Shown here: positions 6,262 to 58,289 of the stretch, piece after piece
How the letters are laid out: the number at the start of each line of letters is the position of its first letter
How positions within the stretch are numbered: the stretch's first letter is position 1
Origin: an uncultured virus (IMG/VR IMGVR_UViG_3300020047_006293)
Taxonomy: Duplodnaviria; Heunggongvirae; Uroviricota; Caudoviricetes
DNA length: 64,000 nt
Virus record (IMG/VR): IMGVR_UViG_3300020047_006293
Reading direction: 5' to 3' (one strand)
Position numbers and translations under genes: made by a program
Notes under the pieces: generated by a model
The model's input: only the letters and a program-made list of their open reading frames with translations
Database searches by the model: none
Told to the model about the DNA's origin: nothing

Positions 6262-7235
6262 ATAGAGAGTAGCCGGGGGGAGTGAATCGCTACCTAAGAA
6301 GTAACCCCGTACTAGTCGGGATAGCTCAAGTAAGATAGCTGCCCCCGCGTACTCTCTATAACAGATAAGACGTATAGCGCTGGGAGTAAAGAGGGTGCTA
6401 GTCACTGAAAACCTATAAATGTGCCGTAAAACCGGTTGGTGGACAAACTAGTGTTTATCGAACTTTCTGCCAGCGCCTTGCGTCTTATCACAAAGTATCA
6501 GTGGCTTTTCCAGCCATCAAAGCCCCACTTGAACGTAGTAGCTTGAATGTAACACGCTATGAAATCAACGGATATAACGTAGGATGCGACCCGATGGCTG
6601 GCGTAGCNNNNNNNNNNNNNNNNNNNNNNNNNNNNNNNNNNNNNNNNNNNNNNNNNNNNNNNNNNNNNNNNNNNNNNNNNNNNNNNNNNNNNNNNNNNNN
6701 NNNNNNTATCACAAAGTATCAGTGGCTTTTCCAGCCATCAAAGCCCCACTTGAACGTAGTAGCTTGAATGTAACACGCTATGAAATCAACGGATATAACG
6801 TAGGATGCGACCCGATGGCTGGCGTAGCTACTGATACATAAAGCGCTGGGGAGCTGGCAGTAATGCCCGTCCTGCAGGCGTGGTTGGCTACTCGGTTCGA
6901 ACCCGACTTGCTGCCAGCTCTCCCACGCTTTAACACATATACGACTCACGCATGGTAGTGAGTGGCGGAAATAGGTAGACGCTTATAAACACTAAGAAGA
7001 ACGATGTATCTGACTAATTCTGACTTATGCCAAAACGTGAAATGAAGGGGTGATACTCAACTAAGTAGCGTACGGTAGCAGATGCCTAACGTGTTTCGAT
7101 GTTTCTTCATGCAGGGTGACAATACGAGTATCGGCAGGTGGCGACTGCAAGTTACGGAGGGCTTCGGCTTTTACGTAGAACATACGCTTCACACTCGTCA
7201 AATCCCTGCCTCACTACCATTCGCGAGCCGTATAT
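6262..7235 (+). ncRNA. Second array of stem-closed RNA units, including tRNA-like elements
   Basis: Units at 6262-6359, 6364-6489, 6716-6837, 6839-6932 and 6937-7235, separated by short A/C-rich linkers (one junction spans the N-gap). Confidence 0.6.
6608..6706. other. Scaffold gap (N run) with duplicated flanks
   Basis: 6486-6607 is repeated at 6707-6828. Confidence 0.95.
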
Positions 7236-8562
7236 ACAACAAACTAACCAAAGGAGGGGACATGTACAGGACTACCAAAGAAAAGTCACTGACGACAAAT
7301 GCTACCTGTCCGGAGTGCGGCTCTAAAACCGTGCTCTACCGTGGCGGCACTCTCACGTGCACTAACTGTGCTCATATCCTATCCTCTCCAAAAGTCAAAA
7401 AGAACAAATACAATGCCGTCCGTACTGTCGCCAAAGATGGTCTAAAACGAGACAGCAAGTTTGAAGCCTCTGTAGCAGATGAACTCTACCTAAGAAAACA
7501 AGCCGGAGACATCAAAGACTACGAGAGCCAGTTCAAAGTAACTATCCCGATCTACAGCCATGACGGTGAAATAGTCCACACGGTTTCTCACAAGATTGAT
7601 TTTAGAATTCATAAGGACGACGGAAGTTTCACACTTTATGAAGCCAAGGGAAAAGAGACGCCTGACTACATATGGCGCAGAAAGCTTCTAGAGGTCGTCT
7701 GGCTACCTGAACACCCCGACCATGAGTATGAGGTCAGGTATCAACATAACAGGAGGAGAGCACGATGAAAGAGCTTGAAGAAGTCACGTTCCCTAAGATC
7801 GTATCTGCTATAAAGCGAGGCGATTTTACCTACACTAGCCAAAAAACTATGACGGTAGACCTTCTGGATAACGTAGTAGCCAACGACTACTCGCGTGATG
7901 GAGAAGAAGTTAAGCCAACACTTATAGCGGTCGAAGTTTCATGGAAACCACTACTATACGAAACCTTTGGCGCAGAAAGATCAGGAGATTAGTAAATGAA
8001 ACTCACCGACATACTCCAACTCCTCACCATCTGGACTATAGGAGCAGGAATCATAGTTTACATAATCAAAGGCGAAATAGACTACCAGAAGTGGACAAAG
8101 AAAACTAAGGAAGGAGACGAGTGATGAACAGCGGAAAAGAGACGACAAACTATAGGTACTTAGTGGTAGAGGAAGGTTCAATTTTGTTTTGCACTGACAG
8201 CAAGAGTCAGCTAGAAACATTCTTGCAAAGTGTGCCAGCAAATAAAGTAGCCGTATATCAAAAACGCTATGGCTCGGAATCACTACTTTGCGAGGTTGAA
8301 TATGAAGACGACAACGAAGAAGGAAAGAGCGATGTCTGATACCCCCAACCAACCAAAGACAGACTGGCTCGATAACTTTGTCAAGGACGACCTCACGTTC
8401 CTAACAGACGGGGAGAAGCAAGCCATCCGTACCCAACTCAAAGAGAGACTACTAGAACACAAAAAGACTTATATAACTGAGCTAAGGTGGAAATACTCTA
8501 GAGCGGAGGAAGCTGTCCCTATATCAGCCCTAACCCAAGTACTAGGAGAAGATGTATGAGTA
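6707..8562 (+). repeat. Direct repeat copy 1 (about 1.86 kb); copy 2 at 47224-49079
   Basis: Identical ORF translations and matching ends at an offset of 40,517. Confidence 0.95.
7262..7768 (+). CDS. Zn-ribbon plus DUF1064-like PD-(D/E)XK nuclease
   Basis: CPECG/CTNC, NKYNA, DSKFEA, IDF and EAKG motifs; GGAGG RBS before ATG 7262. Confidence 0.7.
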   Translation: MYRTTKEKSLTTNATCPECGSKTVLYRGGTLTCTNCAHILSSPKVKKNKYNAVRTVAKDGLKRDSKFEASVADELYLRKQAGDIKDYESQFKVTIPIYSHDGEIVHTVSHKIDFRIHKDDGSFTLYEAKGKETPDYIWRRKLLEVVWLPEHPDHEYEVRYQHNRRRAR

Positions 8563-13684: not shown

Positions 13685-13920
13685 TGGCTAAGGATACAAA
13701 ACCAACCGAGAAGCAGTTTTCGCTCAAGAATACTGAACTAAACCTGATCGGTAACATCAACCGACGACGGGATCAAGCTATCCTAGACGTATTTAGCTAC
13801 ATTGCTATCGAACGCCTAGCATATAACGTTACTGAACACACTCAGTTCCGCACTGACGAGAAGGGTGATCTATATATCTCTGAAATAGAGCCTACCCCTG
13901 AAGAAGTGGAGGTAGCGTAA
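13684..13920 (+). CDS. Hypothetical protein between groES and groEL
   Basis: Coupled ORF with TAATG overlaps at both ends. Confidence 0.6.
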   Translation: MAKDTKPTEKQFSLKNTELNLIGNINRRRDQAILDVFSYIAIERLAYNVTEHTQFRTDEKGDLYISEIEPTPEEVEVA

Positions 13921-15482
13921 TGAACCTACCAAAACGTGAGATCAAAAACATTACCTCTGGTGATGAGGCACGAACTAAGCTACTACACGGTGTAGAGACG
14001 ATCTACGCTGCAGTTAGCTCAACGTATGGGCCAGCTGGTAACAACGTAATACTCGGCATGCCTTATGGTGACTCAACCCTCACGCGTGACGGCGTAACCG
14101 TCGCTAAAAGGGTTATTCTCAAAGATCGTGCCGAGGACAATGCAGTCCAGATCATTCGTCAGGCTAGTGAGAAGACCAACAAGACAGCGGGTGATGGTAC
14201 AACCGCGACTGTCGTCCTGGCTCGTAACCTAGTTAAAGATGGCTACCGACTGATCGCAGCTGGTGAAAATGGTATGTTGCTCAAGAAGCAGATCGCGGCC
14301 GATAGCATAAAGGTGATCGACTTCCTCAAGGATAAATCAGAGGACGCAGAGGGCCACCTGCTAGACGTTGCTACCGTATCAGCTGGCGACCCTGCCATTG
14401 GTGCGCTTGTCAAAGACACCCTGGAGGACATCGGGCAGAACGGTGGTATTACCATTCGTGAGCAAGACTACCCGACTGTTGACGTCGAGAAGATCGGTGG
14501 CTACTACTTCGACAAGGGCTTCTTTGCCCTCAACCAGAAGATAGACCTACCTAACCCACTGATATTCGTCGCTGGCAAGAACATAGCTAGCAACGATGAA
14601 ATGATCCCCCTCCTCAGCCATGTCATTAACAGTGACAACAAGAACCTTGTCATCATTGGTGATGTACGCATGAACTCAGATGCCATGAACACCCTACTTC
14701 GTAACGTCCTAGAGGGTAAGCTGAACGCTGCAGTCGTACCACCACCAGCATTCAACAACGAGGGGCTTCTGTTTATGCAGGACATTGCGACCTACGTTGG
14801 CGCAAAGCTATTTACTGAAGGTGATGATCCAAAGGCTATCAAGGGCGGGCTTGAGTACTTTGGTACGGCAGAACGTGTTGTGGTTACCCAGGACGACGCT
14901 ATCATATTCAAAGGTGCTGGCTCTACTGAGGACATTGAAGTTCGTATCGCTGAGATCGAAGCACAGATCAAGGCTGAGAAGAGCGCACACCGCAAAGACC
15001 AGCTAGAGCAGCGTCTCGCCAAACTAACCGGCAAGATTGCTATCATCAACGTCGGTGGTTCAACCCCTACCGAGATGGAGGAGCTGCGCTACCGCGTCGA
15101 GGACTCTATAGAGGCTACTAAGTCAGCTATGGCAGATGGTGTGCTCCCTGGTGGTGCTACCATGTTGGTTAAAGCTGCAGCCCTCGACATATCACCGATG
15201 TTCAAGAACGCCCTCCTAGATACATTCCGCAAACTGATGTCTAACGCTGCCGAGAACGCTGAGAAGCGCCTAGGACAAGTGCAAGACGCTGAGTATGGGT
15301 TTGGGTTCAACCTACGTGCGATGACTGACCAGCCTATCGATCTACGTGAGTCTGGGGTATGGGACGCGACACGCGCTGTTACGCAGACCGTAGAGAATGC
15401 TACGAGTGCCGCAGGATCACTATTAACTGTTGGGGTGATCGTTGACCCTATCGACCAGGAGGAAGACGATGAGAACTCCTAA
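13920..15482 (+). CDS. groEL: Chaperonin GroEL (Cpn60), phage-encoded
   Basis: TYGPAG, TRDGVTVAK, AGDGTTAT, RVEDSIEATKSA and GVLPGG. Confidence 0.95.
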   Translation: MNLPKREIKNITSGDEARTKLLHGVETIYAAVSSTYGPAGNNVILGMPYGDSTLTRDGVTVAKRVILKDRAEDNAVQIIRQASEKTNKTAGDGTTATVVLARNLVKDGYRLIAAGENGMLLKKQIAADSIKVIDFLKDKSEDAEGHLLDVATVSAGDPAIGALVKDTLEDIGQNGGITIREQDYPTVDVEKIGGYYFDKGFFALNQKIDLPNPLIFVAGKNIASNDEMIPLLSHVINSDNKNLVIIGDVRMNSDAMNTLLRNVLEGKLNAAVVPPPAFNNEGLLFMQDIATYVGAKLFTEGDDPKAIKGGLEYFGTAERVVVTQDDAIIFKGAGSTEDIEVRIAEIEAQIKAEKSAHRKDQLEQRLAKLTGKIAIINVGGSTPTEMEELRYRVEDSIEATKSAMADGVLPGGATMLVKAAALDISPMFKNALLDTFRKLMSNAAENAEKRLGQVQDAEYGFGFNLRAMTDQPIDLRESGVWDATRAVTQTVENATSAAGSLLTVGVIVDPIDQEEDDENS

Positions 15483-40160: not shown

Positions 40161-40523
40161 ATGTCGGAGTTTGAAGGCCACTTACCAACCATGCGGCTAA
40201 AAGGTGAGGACGGTGAGTTCGACGTCACACCGGAAAATGGGGTGTTGTATCGTCACCTAGGCGAGCGAGCAATCTTTGACAATATCTTTATGGTGACTGG
40301 CCTAAAAGACGATGGCTCGCGTGAGGGTACACCAGTATTTCTCAGAGGCTTTGTAGACGACGCCACTACAGCCCAGATAACGCACTTTATGATCACGAGA
40401 GGGTACGAGTGCCACCTGAACCTTCCGGACGTCATGGAGGCGTTCGTGGATGTCCACAGCAAGTTTTTGGCGCGTGAGACTGCTGATGTTGGTGATACAG
40501 TACCCGATGATTGGCTCGCATAA
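40161..40523 (+). CDS. Hypothetical protein; homolog of 1..345
   Basis: Near-identical translation. Confidence 0.8.
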   Translation: MSEFEGHLPTMRLKGEDGEFDVTPENGVLYRHLGERAIFDNIFMVTGLKDDGSREGTPVFLRGFVDDATTAQITHFMITRGYECHLNLPDVMEAFVDVHSKFLARETADVGDTVPDDWLA

Positions 40524-41236
40524 CACATTGTTGACATAAATATAAGCAAGTGCTAAAATGACGTCGTGTAGAAATGCACCTGAATTCAGCAACTATCGAT
40601 ATGAACCCTAGCGCGCGCTAGGGTCATTTTCGTTATTGTACTTATGCCTTGTTGGTAGTATGCTGAACACATAGTCAAGCATGGACTCGCAACTTACTTG
40701 TTGGTTAGCACAATCTATCTTTAAAACTTTTGTTTTTGTAACATAAAAAACGTCTCTCACTGACCGCCGACATGCTATAACGGCGGTATTCTTTTTGTCT
40801 TGAAATAACAGTGGTATTTTTATTCCCACTAGCTGCCCCTTCCCTGTAGCTATAGTAGCTAAGGGCTAGGGTTTCGATTTACAAGTTCTAGGCAGTGAGA
40901 GTGGTTCATGTGCATTGCAGTGACCTGGTTGACGTACAGACAACCTTACGGTTGTCGCTTAGGGCTATATTATCAGAGCCAGGTATTATGCATTGAACAC
41001 GATCTACCTATCATCACTCGTGCCTACAGTTTTTTGCTAGAGCTGCGAACTAGATTATTGTAAATATTTTTGCACATTTAGACATAACTGTTATAATGAA
41101 AACAGCGTTAGAGGTCGCCCCGATGTAAAAGTCGGGGTTATTCTTTTGTCTAATTTATACCCCCTACTAGGATTTCTGCGTTAGAGATCTTTTCAGTTAC
41201 TCTACATCATAGCGCATAGCTTACTTTTGTTCAACC

Positions 41237-41300
41237 AAAACAAAATAGACCGGGTGAAAGGATTGTATACATTTGAAACGTAAGAATCCCCGGTCTATTT
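41237..41300 (-). ncRNA. Putative antisense sRNA
   Basis: Minus-strand promoter (TTTATA-17-TATAAT with extended TG, 41335-41307), 12 bp stem, U tail; loop complementary to GAAAGGATT leaders. Confidence 0.55.
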
Positions 41301-41340
41301 GTGACTATTATATCATCAGAGGTGTTTTATATAAAGACCG

Positions 41341-41369
41341 TTGACCTACTCAACCGCTTGTGCTACAAT
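41341..41369 (+). promoter_or_regulatory. Promoter with AACCGCTTGTGCTA spacer motif
   Basis: TTGACC-17-TACAAT; motif repeated at 45120-45149 and 46110-46138. Confidence 0.7.
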
Positions 41370-41395
41370 GGAAGTAAATCAACGAAAGGATTTGT

Positions 41396-41959
41396 ATGAC
41401 AAAGAAGTTGTCGGATATTGTCAAAAAGAACGAGTTAGCTAAGTTCAACAGGGCTGACGAGTTCCTTGAGTTCGTAAACCAAGAGCCACCTGCAATATTC
41501 ATTGAGAAACATCCGATGGCTAAGGGTGTAGACTATATCCCTATCGGCAACACCGAGCTTACTATGGATAAGATATTCCAGTACTGGGGAGTCGAAGTGT
41601 TGAAAACGGAAGTAATGTTTAACGCTATAGCAGTCACGGTCAGGGTGAACTATAAACACCCTATATCTGGAGAGTGGATGCACCAGGACGGAGTTGGCGC
41701 AGTAGGTGTTCAGACTGATAAAGGATTCACGGCTGCTGATCTAGCTCATATAAAGCAAGATGCCGTGATGAAAGCCTTACCAGCTGCAAAGTCGTTCGCT
41801 ATCAAGGACGCAGTTGATCACATTGGTAAGATATTTGGCCGTGACCTCAACAGAAAGAACACCTTTGACTTTACCCCCTCATACGGAACCCAAGCCGTCA
41901 AGGACGAGTTAGAGATAAAGAAAGAGAAACTAAGGAACATAGTTAGGAAACCTCAATGA
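41396..41959 (+). CDS. Rad52/Sak/ERF-like single-strand annealing protein
   Basis: YIPIG, DGVGA and KIFGRDL motifs; next to an exonuclease. Confidence 0.65.
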   Translation: MTKKLSDIVKKNELAKFNRADEFLEFVNQEPPAIFIEKHPMAKGVDYIPIGNTELTMDKIFQYWGVEVLKTEVMFNAIAVTVRVNYKHPISGEWMHQDGVGAVGVQTDKGFTAADLAHIKQDAVMKALPAAKSFAIKDAVDHIGKIFGRDLNRKNTFDFTPSYGTQAVKDELEIKKEKLRNIVRKPQ

Positions 41960-42648
41960 AAGTAATCAAAGACCTCGAACAGAACAGCGAAGAATGGTTT
42001 GACTTTAGGCGCGGTAAGATCGGCGGCTCAAAAGTTGCTGGTATAAAACCACTAAAGACAGGTAAGAAAAAGGGTATCGTAGAGGGCGCTGTTGGTGTCT
42101 GGAAGATCATCGCTGAACGTCTATCTATCGCCAAAGGAGTTGAGCTAGACCGAGATCGCGGACATCGACTCGAAGAGACGGCAATGGATAGGGTTAACGA
42201 TGAGTACGACCTAAATCTTATCAGAGGGCGTGTCTGGCAGTCCGATGTGAACGATAGCATGTACATATCACCAGACGCAGAGGAAGACAGCGACCAGCCT
42301 ACATATGCCCAGGAAGACAAGGCTTTCGACACCCACAAACACCTGGAGACTATTTACCAAGACATTCGGGCTAAGAAGCTGAACGACTATAACCCTGTAC
42401 TAAGCATCCCAAGCGATAACGTAGATCAGTTAGTTGACTACTTTGTTATTAACGAACGCCTTGAGAGACTGTACTTTACGCTTATCAATGATATGGTAGC
42501 GTTCCCTGAACTAGAGTGCTATGTAATTGTGATTGAGCGTCATCATGTTGAAGGGCTTATCCAAGAGCAGCAAGACATTCAATTGAGAGCGCTCAAAAGA
42601 GCAGATGAAATTGTAGAAGAGCTATTAAAGGAACTAGGAGTAAAGTAA
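41956..42648 (+). CDS. YqaJ-like exonuclease
   Basis: QNSEEWFDFRRGKIGGS, RGHRLE, ISPD and EDK. Confidence 0.8.
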   Translation: MKVIKDLEQNSEEWFDFRRGKIGGSKVAGIKPLKTGKKKGIVEGAVGVWKIIAERLSIAKGVELDRDRGHRLEETAMDRVNDEYDLNLIRGRVWQSDVNDSMYISPDAEEDSDQPTYAQEDKAFDTHKHLETIYQDIRAKKLNDYNPVLSIPSDNVDQLVDYFVINERLERLYFTLINDMVAFPELECYVIVIERHHVEGLIQEQQDIQLRALKRADEIVEELLKELGVK

Positions 42649-42649
42649 T

Positions 42650-43645
42650 ATGACAGACCAACTACAAGTAATACTGGACGAGCAGAATGTAGCTCAAGAA
42701 AATGCCAAACAGCTTATAGAGGCATTTGGTGCGCCATTTACCGAAGCTGGTGAGATTCTATCCACCTACAAGGACATTGCGGTTACAGATGAGAGCCAAA
42801 AAGACCTGATGGCTGAGGCGAGAGAAAAACGCCTGATACTCAAAAAGATTCGTACTGGCGTCGAAGCAAAACGTAAGGAGTTAAAAGAGAATTCACTAAG
42901 GACTGGGAAGGCGATCGATGGTGTGGCACGCTACATCAAAGAGAATATCGAACCAGCCGAGGAGTATCTAGAACTACAAGAAAAGTTTGCAGAGATAAAA
43001 GAGGCTGAACGAGCAGCTGTTGTCAAAGCAGAACGTATCGAGAGGCTTTCAAAGTATACCGATGATTTATCTGTATACAACCTAGACATCATGCAGGAAG
43101 AGACATTCGATAAGCTACTGGCTGATCTAAAAGCAGCTTATGACGCTAGAGTAGCTAAGGAAAAAGAAGAGGCAGAGGCCGTCGAAAAAGCCCGTCTAGC
43201 TGAGGTTGAACGACAGAAAGCTATCGAGGCTGAGAATGCAAAACTGAAGGCTGACGCTGAAGAGCGTGAGAAAGCACTTGAGGCTGAACGTAAAGAAGCT
43301 GCTGCAAAGCAAGCCGAGGCTGATGCTATCCGTGATAAAGAGTTGCAAGCAGAGCGTGATAAAGTTGAGGCTGAACGGAAGAAGCGTGAAGAGATCGAGG
43401 CCGAGCAAAAGGAAGCACTTGCTAAAGCTGAAGCTGAACGTCAAGCAGCAGAAGAGGCTGAACGTCAATCGCTACTCGCTCCTGATAAAGAGAAACTACT
43501 CACTTTCAGCGATGCCCTAGAGATTATCAGGAGAGAGAAGTTACCAGCTGTCAAGACAAAACAGGCACAGGATGTAGTCAATCTCATCGATGAAATGCTC
43601 ATCAAGATGCAGGGGATCATTACATCAAAGGCGAAAGACCTGTAG
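42650..43645 (+). CDS. Long coiled-coil protein (DUF1351-like recombination accessory)
   Basis: E/A/K/R-rich heptads. Confidence 0.55.
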   Translation: MTDQLQVILDEQNVAQENAKQLIEAFGAPFTEAGEILSTYKDIAVTDESQKDLMAEAREKRLILKKIRTGVEAKRKELKENSLRTGKAIDGVARYIKENIEPAEEYLELQEKFAEIKEAERAAVVKAERIERLSKYTDDLSVYNLDIMQEETFDKLLADLKAAYDARVAKEKEEAEAVEKARLAEVERQKAIEAENAKLKADAEEREKALEAERKEAAAKQAEADAIRDKELQAERDKVEAERKKREEIEAEQKEALAKAEAERQAAEEAERQSLLAPDKEKLLTFSDALEIIRREKLPAVKTKQAQDVVNLIDEMLIKMQGIITSKAKDL

Positions 43646-43648
43646 TCT

Positions 43649-44056
43649 GTGAAGTATAACCTCACAGATTCCAAAGACTTCTTTGCAGCTCGCGCCTATC
43701 TTGGCAAACTCCGAGAAAAGAAAGTCCTCATCGAACTCAAAGAAGTGAAAGCGCAGCGGAGTCTCAAGTCCAACGCCTATCTCCACCTCCTGCTGCAGAT
43801 ATGCGCTAGTGAATGGGGTTATAGCCTTGAGGAAATGAAGATCCTGTGGAAACGTCAGGCAGCAAGCATTTTTGTCTACCATAAGCACGACATTCCGTTC
43901 ACTCGTTCAAGTGCTGATCTCGATTCAAAGGAAATGGCTGACGCTATCGAGGCGCTAAAGAAGTATGCGGCAGAACAGGGGCTGGATCTACCTGATCCAG
44001 ACGACCAGGAGAAGATGGCGTATTATGAGAATCAGATAGATAAACGATATTTATGA
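43649..44056 (+). CDS. NinB-like protein
   Basis: RSLKSNAYLH and RSSADLDSKEM. Confidence 0.65.
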   Translation: MKYNLTDSKDFFAARAYLGKLREKKVLIELKEVKAQRSLKSNAYLHLLLQICASEWGYSLEEMKILWKRQAASIFVYHKHDIPFTRSSADLDSKEMADAIEALKKYAAEQGLDLPDPDDQEKMAYYENQIDKRYL

Positions 44057-44694
44057 AAATACTCAACCTCTACGCTGGTATTGGCGGCAACCGTAAACTT
44101 TGGGGTGATGAACACGAGATCACTGCTGTTGAGAGTGAACAGTATATAGCTGACGTCTATGGAGAACTCTACCCTAACGATACTGTTGTAGTTAGTGATG
44201 CCCATCAGTACATACTTGATCACTTCAAGGAGTTCGACTTTATATGGTCTAGTCCACCTTGTCCTACGCACTCAAAACTGAGTACGGGTCTTGCCGGTTG
44301 GGGTATTTATCGTTTTCCAAACATGATGTTGTATGAGGAAATTATATTTCTGCAGACTTTCTTTGAGGGAGATTGGGTTATAGAAAACGTTGTGCCATAT
44401 TATGATCCGTTGATACTCCCTGTAGCACGATTAGATCGGCATCTGTTCTGGAGCAATCGTCACATACCTAAAACATTGAGTGGTCGAAATTTCCAAGGTC
44501 AGCTAAGCAACGCTACTAAAGAGGCGCTGCAGAACTCTCACGGTATCAAGTTACCGGCTGGAACAAAGAATGCTAGAAAACTACTTAGAAACGCAGTAGA
44601 CCCTAAGCTAGGACTGCACATATTTGAAGCAGTAGCTTACCAGCGCGTGAACCCGAGTGCTGGCGATAATATGATGTTCGAGTTAGGGCTGTGA
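44053..44694 (+). CDS. Short C5-cytosine DNA methyltransferase
   Basis: ILNLYAGIGG, SPPCPTHS, ENV and LRNAV. Confidence 0.85.
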   Translation: MKILNLYAGIGGNRKLWGDEHEITAVESEQYIADVYGELYPNDTVVVSDAHQYILDHFKEFDFIWSSPPCPTHSKLSTGLAGWGIYRFPNMMLYEEIIFLQTFFEGDWVIENVVPYYDPLILPVARLDRHLFWSNRHIPKTLSGRNFQGQLSNATKEALQNSHGIKLPAGTKNARKLLRNAVDPKLGLHIFEAVAYQRVNPSAGDNMMFELGL

Positions 44695-44761
44695 CCATTG
44701 AGCGTATATGCCTCGTCTGTAACAAACCCCAAAAGAAAACTAAACGAAGAGTATCCACTAT

Positions 44762-45133
44762 ATGCAATTGCAACCTAAAAAGCCCTGTAAATGGTGCGGA
44801 GAGTTCCCCGCCCGGCACTTTGCCTACCAGTGCAGGGAAAACCCCAAAGTAAAATCCTACAGAATCCCACAAATAGGCAAAGAAACAATCGAGTATAATA
44901 AATGGCGTGACACTGTAGCAAAACCGTACTTAGATAAAAAGTATGGTCGTGTCTGCCAGGCGTGTTTTGGGGCTAGATGTGGTAACAAGCAACTAGATGT
45001 TGAACATACGAAGAGTAGAGGCGGTCACCACGAGCTAAAAAAGGTACTGAGCAACGTAACTTATATGGGTCGTTACCCCTGTCACTTTGAGAAAACTAAC
45101 AATATCAAGCACGAAAGTCTTGACAAAACATAA
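44762..45133 (+). CDS. HNH/NinG-like nuclease
   Basis: CKWC, CQAC and H...N...CH arrangement. Confidence 0.55.
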   Translation: MQLQPKKPCKWCGEFPARHFAYQCRENPKVKSYRIPQIGKETIEYNKWRDTVAKPYLDKKYGRVCQACFGARCGNKQLDVEHTKSRGGHHELKKVLSNVTYMGRYPCHFEKTNNIKHESLDKT

Positions 45134-45149
45134 CCGCTTGTGCTATACT
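45120..45149 (+). promoter_or_regulatory. Promoter with AACCGCTTGTGCTA motif
   Basis: TTGACA-18-TATACT. Confidence 0.65.
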
Positions 45150-45331
45150 TCCAGTACAGTCATGAAAGGATTGTATAAGCCTCGGGGATGTAGATAGCCC
45201 CACGCCATAAACGCTACAAGGCACGAAGCTTAGGAACACAAATCGGCTAGTCTCCGCTGGACTGGTGATGCCCACCCTTACCAGCCCAGCGGAGACTAGC
45301 CGATACATACCAACTAACAGGAGAAATCCAA

Positions 45332-45526
45332 ATGGTTAAAACACCAACAACCAAAACAACAAAAGAGCCACGAACCGTCAAACTGACAACTGTTGGCATC
45401 ACGGTACTAGTACTCGCATTCATGGCACTGTCCTTTGCGGCAGGTTGGGTAGCAAGGACTGACGACCAAATCAGAGTTTCTAGCGAAGCGTCAGCGCTCG
45501 TAGAAAAGTTAAAATCGCGGAACTAG
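45332..45526 (+). CDS. Small membrane-anchored protein; N-terminal part of a probable -1 fusion
   Basis: TM segment VGITVLVLAFMALSFAAGWVA. Confidence 0.7.
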   Translation: MVKTPTTKTTKEPRTVKLTTVGITVLVLAFMALSFAAGWVARTDDQIRVSSEASALVEKLKSRN

Positions 45527-45936
45527 ATTCAACGTCCGAACCTAGTACGAAAGTCGAGGACGTAGCACCGATTGTAAGCGTTCCAGAGCCACAACCTGAA
45601 CAGGTAGCCACTCCAGCGCCTACAATCGCATACAGCGCCCCACAAGGCGCAGGACAGTGTGAACAATGGCTCATTGCAGCCGGTGTCACCGACCTAGTGA
45701 ACGCTCGTGAGCTTATGCGCCGAGAAAACGCAGGTTGTGACCCACAGCTTTACAACCAAGGAGGCTCGAATGCCTGTGGTGTAGCTCAAGAGCTACCATG
45801 CGGCAAGTCAGGGTGTGGCAAACCACCAAACGCTGACGGAGCTTGTCAAGTACGTTGGATGGCTTCTTACGTTGCTCAACGGTACGGATCGTGGGCTAGT
45901 GCTATACAATGGCATAATGTAAACAACTGGTATTAG
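45484..45936 (+). CDS. Lytic transglycosylase-like domain in the -1 frame
   Basis: RRENAGCDP, NACGVAQELPC and YVAQRYGSW...WY; open Pro-rich linker upstream of the first start codon (45697). Confidence 0.65.
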   Translation, partial: RSVSARRKVKIAELDSTSEPSTKVEDVAPIVSVPEPQPEQVATPAPTIAYSAPQGAGQCEQWLIAAGVTDLVNARELMRRENAGCDPQLYNQGGSNACGVAQELPCGKSGCGKPPNADGACQVRWMASYVAQRYGSWASAIQWHNVNNWY

Positions 45937-46109
45937 GAGTGCAGCATGAATGACCTATCCCCAACAAACCTACTTGAAGAGTTCTCTATAGACTGGGCAG
46001 CCTTTAGCCTCAGACACCGAGTCTGGGTCGATAGGGAACAACTCTGGAAAAAGTTTATCCGATCAGTATAGTAAAAAGCCGTCTGCGGGGCGGCTTTTTA
46101 CATTCTCTC

Positions 46110-46138
46110 TTGCATGATTCAACCGCTTGTGCTACAAT
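46110..46138 (+). promoter_or_regulatory. Promoter with AACCGCTTGTGCTA motif
   Basis: TTGCAT-17-TACAAT, just after a terminator hairpin (aaaagccg...cggctttt). Confidence 0.65.
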
Positions 46139-46164
46139 GAGTACATATCAATGAAAGGATTAGT

Positions 46165-46706
46165 ATGAAAGACCTACAAATATACTGCAAGCGAGTGATA
46201 GTTGAGGCCGACAGTGCAGATAGTAACCTAGTAACGCTAGAAGGATTCGATCTTAGTGAAGTCACTTCAAATTTCACCGTAGCTGAGATACTAGACAACA
46301 TGGAACTTTCCGACATTCACGAGTACGTCACTAGCAAAGTAGAAGATGGAGAGATGGACTCATGAACCTCACCAAACTACAGAAGGTGGTCTACAATGCC
46401 TACCTCGAAGATAGCCGGGTAGTTGACGACGACGCGCTGCTACAGGCTACCGTGTGGAGTAAATACTGGGACGACCGAAAGAGCCTCTACGAAAACCTCA
46501 AGATATGTCCACGTGCCGAGAGTCTTTCACGCCGTCGCCGAGAACTTTACATCATGGGGCTTATCACCTACTCGGATTCCAAGCTCAAAGAGCGTACGGA
46601 CGCATTCAAAAACGAACGTGACATGCACAGCGACAATTGGTTCACCGCATGGATGAATGAGACAACAGGCCAACTAGAAAAACTTACAGTAAGGACAAAA
46701 CCATGA
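46165..46706 (+). CDS. Two hypothetical proteins (46165..46365 and 46362..46706)
   Basis: Coupled ORFs with RBS. Confidence 0.6.
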
Positions 46707-47117: not shown

Positions 47118-47227
47118 GATAGAGCGTAGTAGTGCTGGCCATGTAGCTCAGGAGAGAGCGGTAGGTCGCACCTACGGTCGGGGACGAGTTGCAACTACAC
47201 CCCATGGCTAGCACCATGCGCTCTATC
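47118..47227 (+). ncRNA. Degenerate tRNA-like RNA within an extended stem
   Basis: GGCCATG/CATGGCT acceptor, TAGCTCAG...GAGC D arm, GTAGG/CCTAC arm, non-canonical T arm. Confidence 0.55.
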
Positions 47228-49079
47228 ACAAAGTATCAGTGGCTTTTCCAGCCATCAAAGCCCCACTTGAACGTAGTAGCTTGAATGTAACACGCTATGA
47301 AATCAACGGATATAACGTAGGATGCGACCCGATGGCTGGCGTAGCTACTGATACATAAAGCGCTGGGGAGCTGGCAGTAATGCCCGTCCTGCAGGCGTGG
47401 TTGGCTACTCGGTTCGAACCCGACTTGCTGCCAGCTCTCCCACGCTTTAACACATATACGACTCACGCATGGTAGTGAGTGGCGGAAATAGGTAGACGCT
47501 TATAAACACTAAGAAGAACGATGTATCTGACTAATTCTGACTTATGCCAAAACGTGAAATGAAGGGGTGATACTCAACTAAGTAGCGTACGGTAGCAGAT
47601 GCCTAACGTGTTTCGATGTTTCTTCATGCAGGGTGACAATACGAGTATCGGCAGGTGGCGACTGCAAGTTACGGAGGGCTTCGGCTTTTACGTAGAACAT
47701 ACGCTTCACACTCGTCAAATCCCTGCCTCACTACCATTCGCGAGCCGTATATACAACAAACTAACCAAAGGAGGGGACATGTACAGGACTACCAAAGAAA
47801 AGTCACTGACGACAAATGCTACCTGTCCGGAGTGCGGCTCTAAAACCGTGCTCTACCGTGGCGGCACTCTCACGTGCACTAACTGTGCTCATATCCTATC
47901 CTCTCCAAAAGTCAAAAAGAACAAATACAATGCCGTCCGTACTGTCGCCAAAGATGGTCTAAAACGAGACAGCAAGTTTGAAGCCTCTGTAGCAGATGAA
48001 CTCTACCTAAGAAAACAAGCCGGAGACATCAAAGACTACGAGAGCCAGTTCAAAGTAACTATCCCGATCTACAGCCATGACGGTGAAATAGTCCACACGG
48101 TTTCTCACAAGATTGATTTTAGAATTCATAAGGACGACGGAAGTTTCACACTTTATGAAGCCAAGGGAAAAGAGACGCCTGACTACATATGGCGCAGAAA
48201 GCTTCTAGAGGTCGTCTGGCTACCTGAACACCCCGACCATGAGTATGAGGTCAGGTATCAACATAACAGGAGGAGAGCACGATGAAAGAGCTTGAAGAAG
48301 TCACGTTCCCTAAGATCGTATCTGCTATAAAGCGAGGCGATTTTACCTACACTAGCCAAAAAACTATGACGGTAGACCTTCTGGATAACGTAGTAGCCAA
48401 CGACTACTCGCGTGATGGAGAAGAAGTTAAGCCAACACTTATAGCGGTCGAAGTTTCATGGAAACCACTACTATACGAAACCTTTGGCGCAGAAAGATCA
48501 GGAGATTAGTAAATGAAACTCACCGACATACTCCAACTCCTCACCATCTGGACTATAGGAGCAGGAATCATAGTTTACATAATCAAAGGCGAAATAGACT
48601 ACCAGAAGTGGACAAAGAAAACTAAGGAAGGAGACGAGTGATGAACAGCGGAAAAGAGACGACAAACTATAGGTACTTAGTGGTAGAGGAAGGTTCAATT
48701 TTGTTTTGCACTGACAGCAAGAGTCAGCTAGAAACATTCTTGCAAAGTGTGCCAGCAAATAAAGTAGCCGTATATCAAAAACGCTATGGCTCGGAATCAC
48801 TACTTTGCGAGGTTGAATATGAAGACGACAACGAAGAAGGAAAGAGCGATGTCTGATACCCCCAACCAACCAAAGACAGACTGGCTCGATAACTTTGTCA
48901 AGGACGACCTCACGTTCCTAACAGACGGGGAGAAGCAAGCCATCCGTACCCAACTCAAAGAGAGACTACTAGAACACAAAAAGACTTATATAACTGAGCT
49001 AAGGTGGAAATACTCTAGAGCGGAGGAAGCTGTCCCTATATCAGCCCTAACCCAAGTACTAGGAGAAGATGTATGAGTA
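47224..49079 (+). repeat. Direct repeat copy 2 of 6707-8562 (RNA units, DUF1064-like gene at 47779..48285, small ORFs)
   Basis: Identical translations and matching ends. Confidence 0.95.
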
Positions 49080-57655: not shown

Positions 57656-58289
57656 ACGCTACCGTGACTACAAACCTGGTGAGTTCCTAGTTGTTGGCGT
57701 AGACACGGCCTGGGGCGGCACCGACTATTGTAGCGCCCAATTTCTCAGTAAGACCGAACTAGATGTACCCACTGTGTATCACTCAAGGGTTCTAGCAAGT
57801 GAAATGACCCCGCACATCCACGCAGAATTAGAAAGGATTTATGATGTCACAAAGGTCAAGCCTGTGGTTGCGTTTGAAAGAAACAATGGCGGAGTTGCTG
57901 AAATTGAGCGGCTCGCAACGCTTAACCGTAACGGCAAATACCGAATCTATACCGAAAAGTCTAACGTTGGAACTACTGAAGCTACAGGCGAATCCGTCAC
58001 GCTTGGATGGACTACAAGCTCTGCATCTCGACCTACTATGCTCGCAATGCTCAAAGAAATGGTTGACGGAAAGCTTGTACGTATATACGACAAACCAACA
58101 ATTACCGAAATGTTCTCATTCATCGTCTCCCAAACCTCAAGCAGCTGGAAAGCCCAAGCAGAGTCAGGAGCCCACGACGACCTGATCATGGCCCTCGCTA
58201 TAGCTTGGCAGCTCTACCAGACAGAGAACCCACCACCAAAGCCACAGAAGCTTCCAGAATACAAACCAATGAACTTTATGACCAACTAG
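57645..58289 (+). CDS. Terminase large subunit, nuclease half
   Basis: GVDTAWGGTD, FERNNGG and HDDLIMALAIA. Confidence 0.88.
   Translation: MNFRRYRDYKPGEFLVVGVDTAWGGTDYCSAQFLSKTELDVPTVYHSRVLASEMTPHIHAELERIYDVTKVKPVVAFERNNGGVAEIERLATLNRNGKYRIYTEKSNVGTTEATGESVTLGWTTSSASRPTMLAMLKEMVDGKLVRIYDKPTITEMFSFIVSQTSSSWKAQAESGAHDDLIMALAIAWQLYQTENPPPKPQKLPEYKPMNFMTN

Follow-up and report, generated by a model that had tools for sequence, protein, structure and literature searches.

To our knowledge, few phage RNAs are known to regulate genes of their own phage in trans, and the textbook cases, c4 of P1/P7 and CI of P4, are processed leader fragments of temperate elements. The c4 antisense RNA, whose family is included in Rfam, presents its complementary sequences in the loops a' and b', is processed from the leader of the operon that it controls, with RNA and target on one strand, and belongs to the immunity circuit of a plasmid-prophage, in which the C1 protein takes part too. 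P4 CI is an RNA-only regulator cut from the leader transcript itself; its seqB faces seqA and seqC, repeated short boxes in the leader transcripts of early promoters, and the outcome is premature transcription termination. In Gram-positive bacteria, C-rich-loop small RNAs of the RsaE/RoxS type use an unpaired pyrimidine-rich loop motif to pair with the Shine-Dalgarno (SD) sequences of several mRNAs, and an SD-like box near the 5' end that starts no open reading frame (ORF), known as STAB-SD, can stabilise an mRNA. Excerpts of the phage literature describe P1/P7 c4 as a trans-acting RNA whose loops pair around the ribosome-binding site (RBS) and block translation (PMC12197685; PMC8546580), and P22 sar and lambda OOP/aQ as short, terminator-hairpin-like phage RNAs that lower the expression of regulatory genes by pairing (PMC12197685). 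Among titles and the opening parts of abstracts on phage small RNAs that mask early-gene ribosome sites, and on small RNAs of Saccharibacteria phages, nothing resembles the unit described here.

This unit lies in a 64,000-nt stretch of phage DNA (the window, taken throughout at its full length), where the minus strand at 41232-41335 has a promoter with an extended -10, then a hairpin of 58 nt with a U tail, and where the plus-strand reading of the hairpin loop, TGAAAGGATTGTATA, recurs in the leaders of early promoters. The reading preferred here, to which a probability of about 0.6 is given, is that the hairpin would act in trans as an anti-Shine-Dalgarno RNA, shutting off early genes or gating them; these genes would probably be switched off by RNA and not by a repressor protein, and the RNA is probably a new variant of trans-acting antisense control. 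Its synthesis, its pairing in vivo and the repressive outcome are what we infer from the sequence. The elements of the unit and of its candidate targets are as follows.

41307..41335, minus strand: small-RNA promoter, with -35 TTTATA (41335-41330), a 17-nt spacer and the TG-extended -10 TGATATAAT (41315-41307)
41232..41300, minus strand: predicted small RNA of ~66-69 nt, from its fold, with the start placed by inference 7 nt past the -10 hexamer
41255..41269, minus strand: anti-leader box UAUACAAUCCUUUCA in the 3' part of the loop, holding the anti-SD core
41341..41369, plus strand: early promoter P1, TTGACC-17-TACAAT with TG, divergent from the adjacent small-RNA promoter
41384..41399, plus strand: target 1, GAAAGGATTtGTAT, from the SD to the start codon of the annealing-protein gene
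41396-41959, plus strand: Rad52/Sak-like annealing protein gene, first gene of the recombination operon
from 41956, plus strand: exonuclease gene of the recombination operon
from 43649, plus strand: NinB gene of the recombination operon
45120..45149, plus strand: early promoter P2, TTGACA-18-TATACT with TG
45163..45177, plus strand: target 2, a 15/15 match and SD-like box with no start codon after it
46110..46138, plus strand: early promoter P3, TTGCAT-17-TACAAT with TG, just past a terminator at 46071-46101
46152..46168, plus strand: target 3, TGAAAGGATTaGTAT, from the SD to the start codon of ORF 46165-46365

Comparison with the known systems shows partial likeness to each. As in c4, so far as the excerpts describe it, a phage RNA of ~70 nt, predicted here to act in trans, presents its complement in a loop and would pair at ribosome-binding sites (PMC12197685; PMC8546580), and, as in the heteroimmunity of P1 and P7 outlined in the same excerpts, the RNA-target pairs differ between related phages (PMC12197685; PMC8546580). 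Unlike c4, the RNA has a divergent promoter and a terminator to itself, and three targets, one per promoter-leader module; it lies on the strand opposite to its targets instead of upstream on the same strand with processing, cmscan gave no c4-like covariance-model match, and the complementarity of the loop to phage ribosome-binding sites is a likeness of function only. The resemblance to P4 CI consists of an RNA regulator that faces repeated short boxes in early leaders; the boxes here differ in being ribosome sites, no Rfam match of the P4 CI/IsrK type was found, and there is no terminator between the P1 and P3 boxes and the start codon. The analogy to P1 c4 or P4 CI that had been drawn for this locus thus survives as a c4-like logic and lapses as membership of either family, given the lack of an Rfam match and the separate divergent promoter. 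Being short and made of a terminator-like hairpin, the RNA also recalls sar, OOP and aQ as excerpted (PMC12197685); unlike sar and OOP, whose genes overlap their targets on the opposite strand, the small-RNA gene overlaps none, with the RNA at 41232-41300 and the targets starting at 41384, 45163 and 46152 (~85 bp, 3.9 kb and 4.9 kb away). An anti-SD motif in a loop and, at P2, a 5' SD-like box without an ORF are features in common with RsaE/RoxS and STAB-SD; unlike RsaE/RoxS, which are chromosomal and act on metabolism, RNA and targets form a matched set in one phage, with copies of a single leader module as the targets. Features of a trans-encoded anti-SD small RNA are present, namely a separate promoter and intrinsic terminator (predicted, and conserved in three relatives) and a seed that is unpaired in four of four folds and pairs above background (ranks 1-3 of 121). 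In contrast to processed leader fragments, the RNA would come from a transcription unit of its own and is matched to three copies of one promoter-leader module; across four lineages, changes in the leaders are accompanied by changes in the matches. Searches with cmscan (40400-46500 at E <= 1, and the whole window at gathering scores) returned no Rfam family for the unit, and the matches obtained otherwise were sub-threshold, miRNA-like and confined to a 25-bp hairpin at 45242-45304.

Essentially all long ORFs of the window are on the plus strand, and two related phage genomes or genome variants lie in it in tandem (~346-40523, then 40524-64000). Positions 1-338 repeat 40179-40516 at 91% identity, 6707-8562 equals 47224-49079 exactly, and a 99-N gap at 6608-6706 has duplicated flanks (6486-6607 = 6707-6828); the tandem may reflect a genuine array, or two variants joined during assembly. 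The first unit opens with a tyrosine integrase at 1001-1861 (Pfam PF00589, E = 3.7e-35). The second, which starts at 40524, is preceded by a holin and endolysin region (37.7-39.2 kb) and opens with an 870-bp non-coding stretch between these lysis genes and the early recombination operon; this gap is the control region. Beyond NinB the operon continues with a methyltransferase fragment and an HNH nuclease. No tRNA genes were found, and the region had no match in the phage collection by megablast or blastn. The only named relative is the TM7 phage DolZOral124_53_65 (46% amino acid identity in the annealing protein, 30% in the portal), so a Saccharibacteria-type host is offered only as a lead. 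A gene for a 520-aa GroEL/Cpn60-type chaperonin lies amid phage late genes of the window (13920-15482); the TM7 phage has one too. Further relatives were found via the annealing (Sak-like) protein and comprise one IMG/VR contig (L002), 46 metagenome loci and one MAG contig; the small-RNA unit is present in three further lineages, L002, L123 and L124 (= L125), whose annealing proteins are 85%, 83% and 55-60% identical to that of the window.

The window hairpin extends over 41243-41300 and is closed by 12-bp arms, AAATAGACCGGG and CCCGGTCTATTT (41300-41289 with 41254-41243), with a small inner hairpin and an unpaired CUUUCA predicted between them and a U tail after them (41242-41232). The 69-nt minus-strand RNA 41300->41232 folds at -20.4 kcal/mol (z = -3.82; 0 of 200 shuffles as stable), and in the predicted fold its 5' end coincides with the base of the stem and the seed is unpaired; the hairpin RNA of about 64 nt with a U tail put forward in the original prediction is thus recovered, as a prediction, at 66-69 nt. 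Only on the minus strand does the stem run into the tail TTTTGTTTTGG; that of the plus strand is poor (4 T in 10), and no plus-strand promoter was found upstream of the hairpin. The minus-strand promoter, which had been proposed to stand back to back with the one at 41341, is present there at 41335-41307 (TTTATA-17-TATAAT with TG; 10/12 matches, the -35 being weak at 4/6), and its -35 sits 5 bp from that of P1. Promoter-like matches are not enriched in 40500-46500 (13, vs 8.9 +/- 2.9 in shuffles), so the call draws on position and conservation and not on the scan by itself. A small ORF behind the SD-like copy in the hairpin was considered as a candidate and rejected, as four lineages have no conserved start codon or ORF there.

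The non-coding stretch holds other small elements. A good plus-strand terminator lies at 41117-41148, 100 bp upstream of the hairpin, and ends a conserved plus-strand mini-unit (window 41069-41148, L123 114-190, L002 5519-5600) made up of a promoter TTTGCA-16/17-TGnTATAAT, ~20 nt, a GC hairpin terminator and then a conserved TACCCC(C)T element; the terminator stem changes compensatorily among window, L123 and L002. A second plus-strand promoter-to-terminator unit of the window is found at 40531-40634.

The 15-mer TGAAAGGATTGTATA occurs exactly at two places only, 41255 and 45163, so that the 15/15 complement of the loop expected at 45163-45177 is indeed an exact copy; with one bulge it recurs at the ribosome sites of genes 41396 and 46165, where matches to the RBS regions at 41384 and 46152 had likewise been noted from the sequence. 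All three leader boxes lie 8-22 nt downstream of three homologous early promoters. The 9-mer GAAAGGATT is found five times on the plus strand (41256, 41384, 45164, 46153 and 57831), against 0.43 copies expected and with 0 of 100 shuffles reaching five; four copies are those of the hairpin and the three leaders, and the fifth, at 57831, is without an early-type promoter module upstream. A promoter sequence common to the three targets, also part of the original prediction, is AACCGCTTGTGCTA, which is exact at 41352, 45132 and 46121 only, that is, at the three promoters; across the viral-contig collection this 14-mer gave chance matches only, among the matches listed (at least 120 stretches). The three promoter-leader modules constitute one 50-nt repeat family, the copies at 46119 and 45130 being 84% and 62% identical to that at 41350. 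P3 was missed by the promoter scan because its -35 matches at 3/6 positions, and was assigned from sequence and alignment; the ORF behind it, 46165-46365, encodes a 66-aa acidic protein conserved in L002.

Target 2 differs from the others in being the 5' end of a structured leader of ~175 nt (45156-45331; -72.3 kcal/mol, z = -7.6) ahead of ORF 45332-45526, and its box is predicted to lie in the loop of a 5' hairpin. In the window, L002 and L123, the three phages with P2 visible, no start codon comes after the P2 box, and translation initiation is therefore not enough by itself to explain why the box is conserved. No Rfam family was found for this leader. It contains a 25-bp near-perfect hairpin at 45242-45304, and the P2 leaders of the window and of L002 (7965-8195) have in common a block CCACGCCA..AACGCTA.AAGGCAC. 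In the spacer of the P2 promoter, the window has AACCGCTT (45132-45139) vs the reverse complement, AAGCGGTT, in L002 (7943-7950); the inverted octamer is either chance or an orientation-free protein site.

Pairing was scored using in-house scripts as the duplex energy of sub-windows plus the ensemble cost of opening both intervals, plain RNAcofold having been rejected because a closed loop cannot pair with a second strand in it and the U tail dominated. The 121 targets were the P2 leader and 120 predicted gene starts, left from the 122 of a crude ORF caller after those at 13 (without upstream sequence) and 6584 (upstream sequence running into the N gap) were dropped. In this accessibility-corrected scan the P2 leader ranks 1/121 at -11.7 kcal/mol, ORF 46165 (P3) 2/121 at -9.1 kcal/mol and the annealing-protein gene 41396 (P1) 3/121 at -7.6 kcal/mol, with P1 and P3 treated unequally to the other genes (50 nt from the predicted 5' end, vs -35..+15). 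The mean of the 121 start regions is -2.2 kcal/mol (sd 2.2), and gene 49825, ranking 4/121 at -7.2 kcal/mol, is nearly equal to P1. At the centre of all matches is GAAAGGA, the SD sequence, and it also serves several other genes in the window. When the RNAs of the four lineages were scored against nine leaders, the best partner was the cognate one for 4/4 RNAs (-11.7, -12.8, -13.3 and -16.5 kcal/mol). The specificity is not clean: the window RNA reaches -8.3 kcal/mol on the P3 leader of L002, better than on its own P1, and the L123 RNA only -3.5 kcal/mol on its own P2 leader.

In the relatives the unit is likewise on the opposite strand and back to back with the first early promoter. The operon of the annealing protein is the first transcription unit after the non-coding region in L002, L123 and L124 (= L125); the annealing-protein gene is itself first in L002 and L124/L125, and a short ORF precedes it in L123. 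As in the window, TGnTAWAAT precedes the stem by 5-8 nt in L002, L123 and L124, and all four RNAs have an inner hairpin, an unpaired CCUUUC beside the 3' arm and a U tail, which in L123 comes after a second, terminator hairpin (fold z-scores of the four RNAs, -3.8, -3.9, -3.9 and -4.7). The closing stems of 9-12 bp are unrelated in sequence among the four lineages (AAAUAGACCGGG, AACCACUCGC, AGUAGUGGG and ACCAGUAGG); this covariation comes from separate folds, with no formal count of pairs, because MAFFT alignments of the four RNAs left the stems out of register. The four lineages agree, but not independently, since they are related.

The loops, by comparison, follow the leaders of their own phage. 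Outside the SD core the loop flanks match those leaders in the window (ATTGTATA), in L002 (CAAGTA..ATTT), in L123 (GTA..T.TACAA) and in L124 (ACACT.TAT): the L002 loop CAAGTAGAAAAGGATTTTG faces CAAGTAGAAAGGATTT (twice) and CAAGTAGAAAAGATTTG, the L123 loop GTAGAAAGGTCTACAA faces TGAAAGGTTTACAA and GTAGAAAGGATT, and the L124 loop TGAAAGGACACTCTTAT faces GAAAGGACACTTAT, with single-base insertions between loop copy and leaders in L002 and L124. The covariation of small RNA and targets by which the original prediction could be checked is accordingly seen in three relatives, where loops match their own leaders and stems differ. Aligned together, nine promoter-leader modules of the four phages show a single architecture, in which the spacing from the -10 to the box is constant. 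In L002 a ~21-nt block, AAATCAAGTAGAAAGGATTT, is kept in all three leaders although their promoter spacers are different; the 34.5-kb L002 record has four copies of the box, all on the forward strand, namely the three leaders and the hairpin, and a plus-strand terminator in it ends directly against the hairpin. The L124 hairpin has a T-rich plus-strand tail and abuts a plus-strand stop codon, and judging by these sequences it may double as a terminator.

A heuristic scan of 50 sources for the signature gave 80 hairpins, eight of which passed the filters. The arrangement is seen in 4/8 (window, L002, L124 and L125); the others are the hairpins of L135/L136 and L161, and that of L154, in which CCTTTC lies inside the stem; no convincing case was found among the other loci scanned. 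A version requiring exact 10-mers gave 21 rows, with the window and L124/L125 only, and the L123 unit was found by reading the sequence. Two patterns taken from the P2 leader retrieved the L002 contig only from the viral-contig collection, a scan of genome contigs gave one Bacteroidetes-labelled contig (L169) with a different upstream region, and the early region of a more distant TM7 phage (L001, MG269973.1) has no such unit. The divergent early region of the latter (14100-14180) has the palindrome TTCTATATAGAAT twice, which looks like a protein operator. On the minus strand of L123, TGGTATAAT occurs three times within 417-636 (417-425, 521-529 and 628-636), and the locus has 5 TGnTAWAAT matches vs 0.54 expected. 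The units from 628 and 521 run to minus-strand terminators listed by the scan (560-539 and 458-434), and the motif at 417 is followed by a third hairpin with a T run, seen by reading the sequence only; this suggests that L123 has a cluster of three small minus-strand transcription units, with the anti-leader box in the first only.

These features can be assembled into the following mechanism. The small RNA (41300->~41235) would be read leftward from the TG-extended -10 promoter back to back with P1 and would fold into a single long hairpin with a U tail, the 3' side of its loop exposing UAUACAAUCCUUUCA, an anti-SD extended by phage-specific flanks. The exposed box would pair with the matching box 8-22 nt from the 5' end of three early transcripts: that of P1, for the operon of the Rad52/Sak-like annealing protein, exonuclease and NinB; that of P2, with its long structured leader followed by a small membrane protein; and that of P3, for the gene of the small acidic protein and those behind it. 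The duplex would extend over the SD to the start codon on P1 and P3 and so should block 30S binding, which is the simplest outcome; on P2, the effect of pairing would be to take away a ribosome-binding or stabilising element near the 5' end, or to remodel the leader. The small-RNA promoter and P1-P3 are all of the host sigma-70 type, and the RNA would thus accumulate alongside its targets, giving delayed shut-off of the early genes or a threshold for them. Co-infecting phages that have this leader might be affected as well. RNA-based repression or immunity had been proposed for this locus; the leader-pairing, divergent small RNA is supported by the relatives and by ranks 1-3/121, and the immunity half is unsupported, no integrase or repressor family having been found in 40.1-63.5 kb (where 46 of the 65 scanned ORFs lie), among 24 ORFs compared with PHROGs, or in the 34.5-kb record of L002.

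A different consequence of the same pairing, or a different main target, is unlikely and would take several forms: the RNA could protect or activate the transcripts (by blocking nuclease entry or remodelling the P2 leader), exclude co-infecting relatives, or use its anti-SD core against host mRNAs. Of the three leaders P2 pairs most strongly, and its box starts no ORF and sits in a predicted 5' hairpin loop of a highly structured leader (z = -7.6); loop-leader pairs are diversified among relatives, as expected of specificity groups; and an anti-SD core would match many SD sequences. What tells against this is that the duplex on P1 and P3 extends over the SD to the AUG, of which ribosome occlusion is the ordinary consequence. 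It is distinctly unlikely that the shared sequence acts at the level of DNA or not at all, whether as an operator with four sites for an unrecognised protein or as a relic of promoter-leader duplication. The whole 50-nt module is repeated in the window, spacer AACCGCTTGTGCTA included, which does look like a duplication or an operator, and the many small early ORFs without a family match could encode a regulator. However, the box is not palindromic, the single-base insertions between loop and leader in L002 and L124 are better tolerated by RNA pairing than by a protein site, the L002 spacers have diverged with the leader block kept, and each of four lineages has a copy at a constant position within a minus-strand unit of promoter, hairpin and U tail, an arrangement that a relic would not keep.

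That the hairpin is simply a terminator or insulator between the small plus-strand units upstream and the early operon, with a fortuitous minus-strand promoter match, is very improbable. It does lie between convergent or tandem units, promoter-like matches are common, and in L124 it comes right after a plus-strand stop codon and has T-rich tails on both sides; but the plus-strand tail of the window is poor and a good plus-strand terminator already exists at 41117-41148, a loop of 30-50 nt is atypical, and both the conserved TGnTAWAAT and the match of loop to leader would be left unexplained. The trans-acting anti-SD RNA, if confirmed, would be a compact, reprogrammable RNA switch for early genes, and would offer a way into gene control in a phage group with a single named relative, one that infects uncultivated TM7 (Saccharibacteria). 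A broader version of the same idea is doubtful: phages without a recognisable repressor or integrase, probably infecting uncultivated bacteria, might place the entire early programme under a single RNA 'key' that fits identical 5' leader 'locks', with pairs diversified into exclusion or heteroimmunity groups and RNA-only early control as a general trait of the group. On such a scheme, the integrase-bearing sister phage would use a different, co-oriented RNA pairing (377-416 with 2076-2115).

Several observations concern that integrase-bearing unit itself. It has a plus-strand promoter, TTGACA-17-TATGAT (342-370), that leads into a short RNA ending at a hairpin at ~421-470; the first 49 nt of this RNA can form a duplex of -51 kcal/mol with plus-strand 2068-2116 (background -19.2 +/- 4.6, 3985 windows). 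Alternatively, the two sequences may be a 40-nt inverted repeat on either side of the integrase gene (1001-1861). Positions 390-403 have 13/14 complementarity with tgcaggagcgagcATG, an SD/start region at 2935-2950. Behind the integrase gene, 1862-2635 is a long, non-coding and highly paired stretch, with inverted repeats at 2231-2344, 2379-2531 and 2545-2616; an Rfam search of it found nothing, and it has a short motif, cggggat[ag]gtagatag, in common with the P2 leader (45177-45192).
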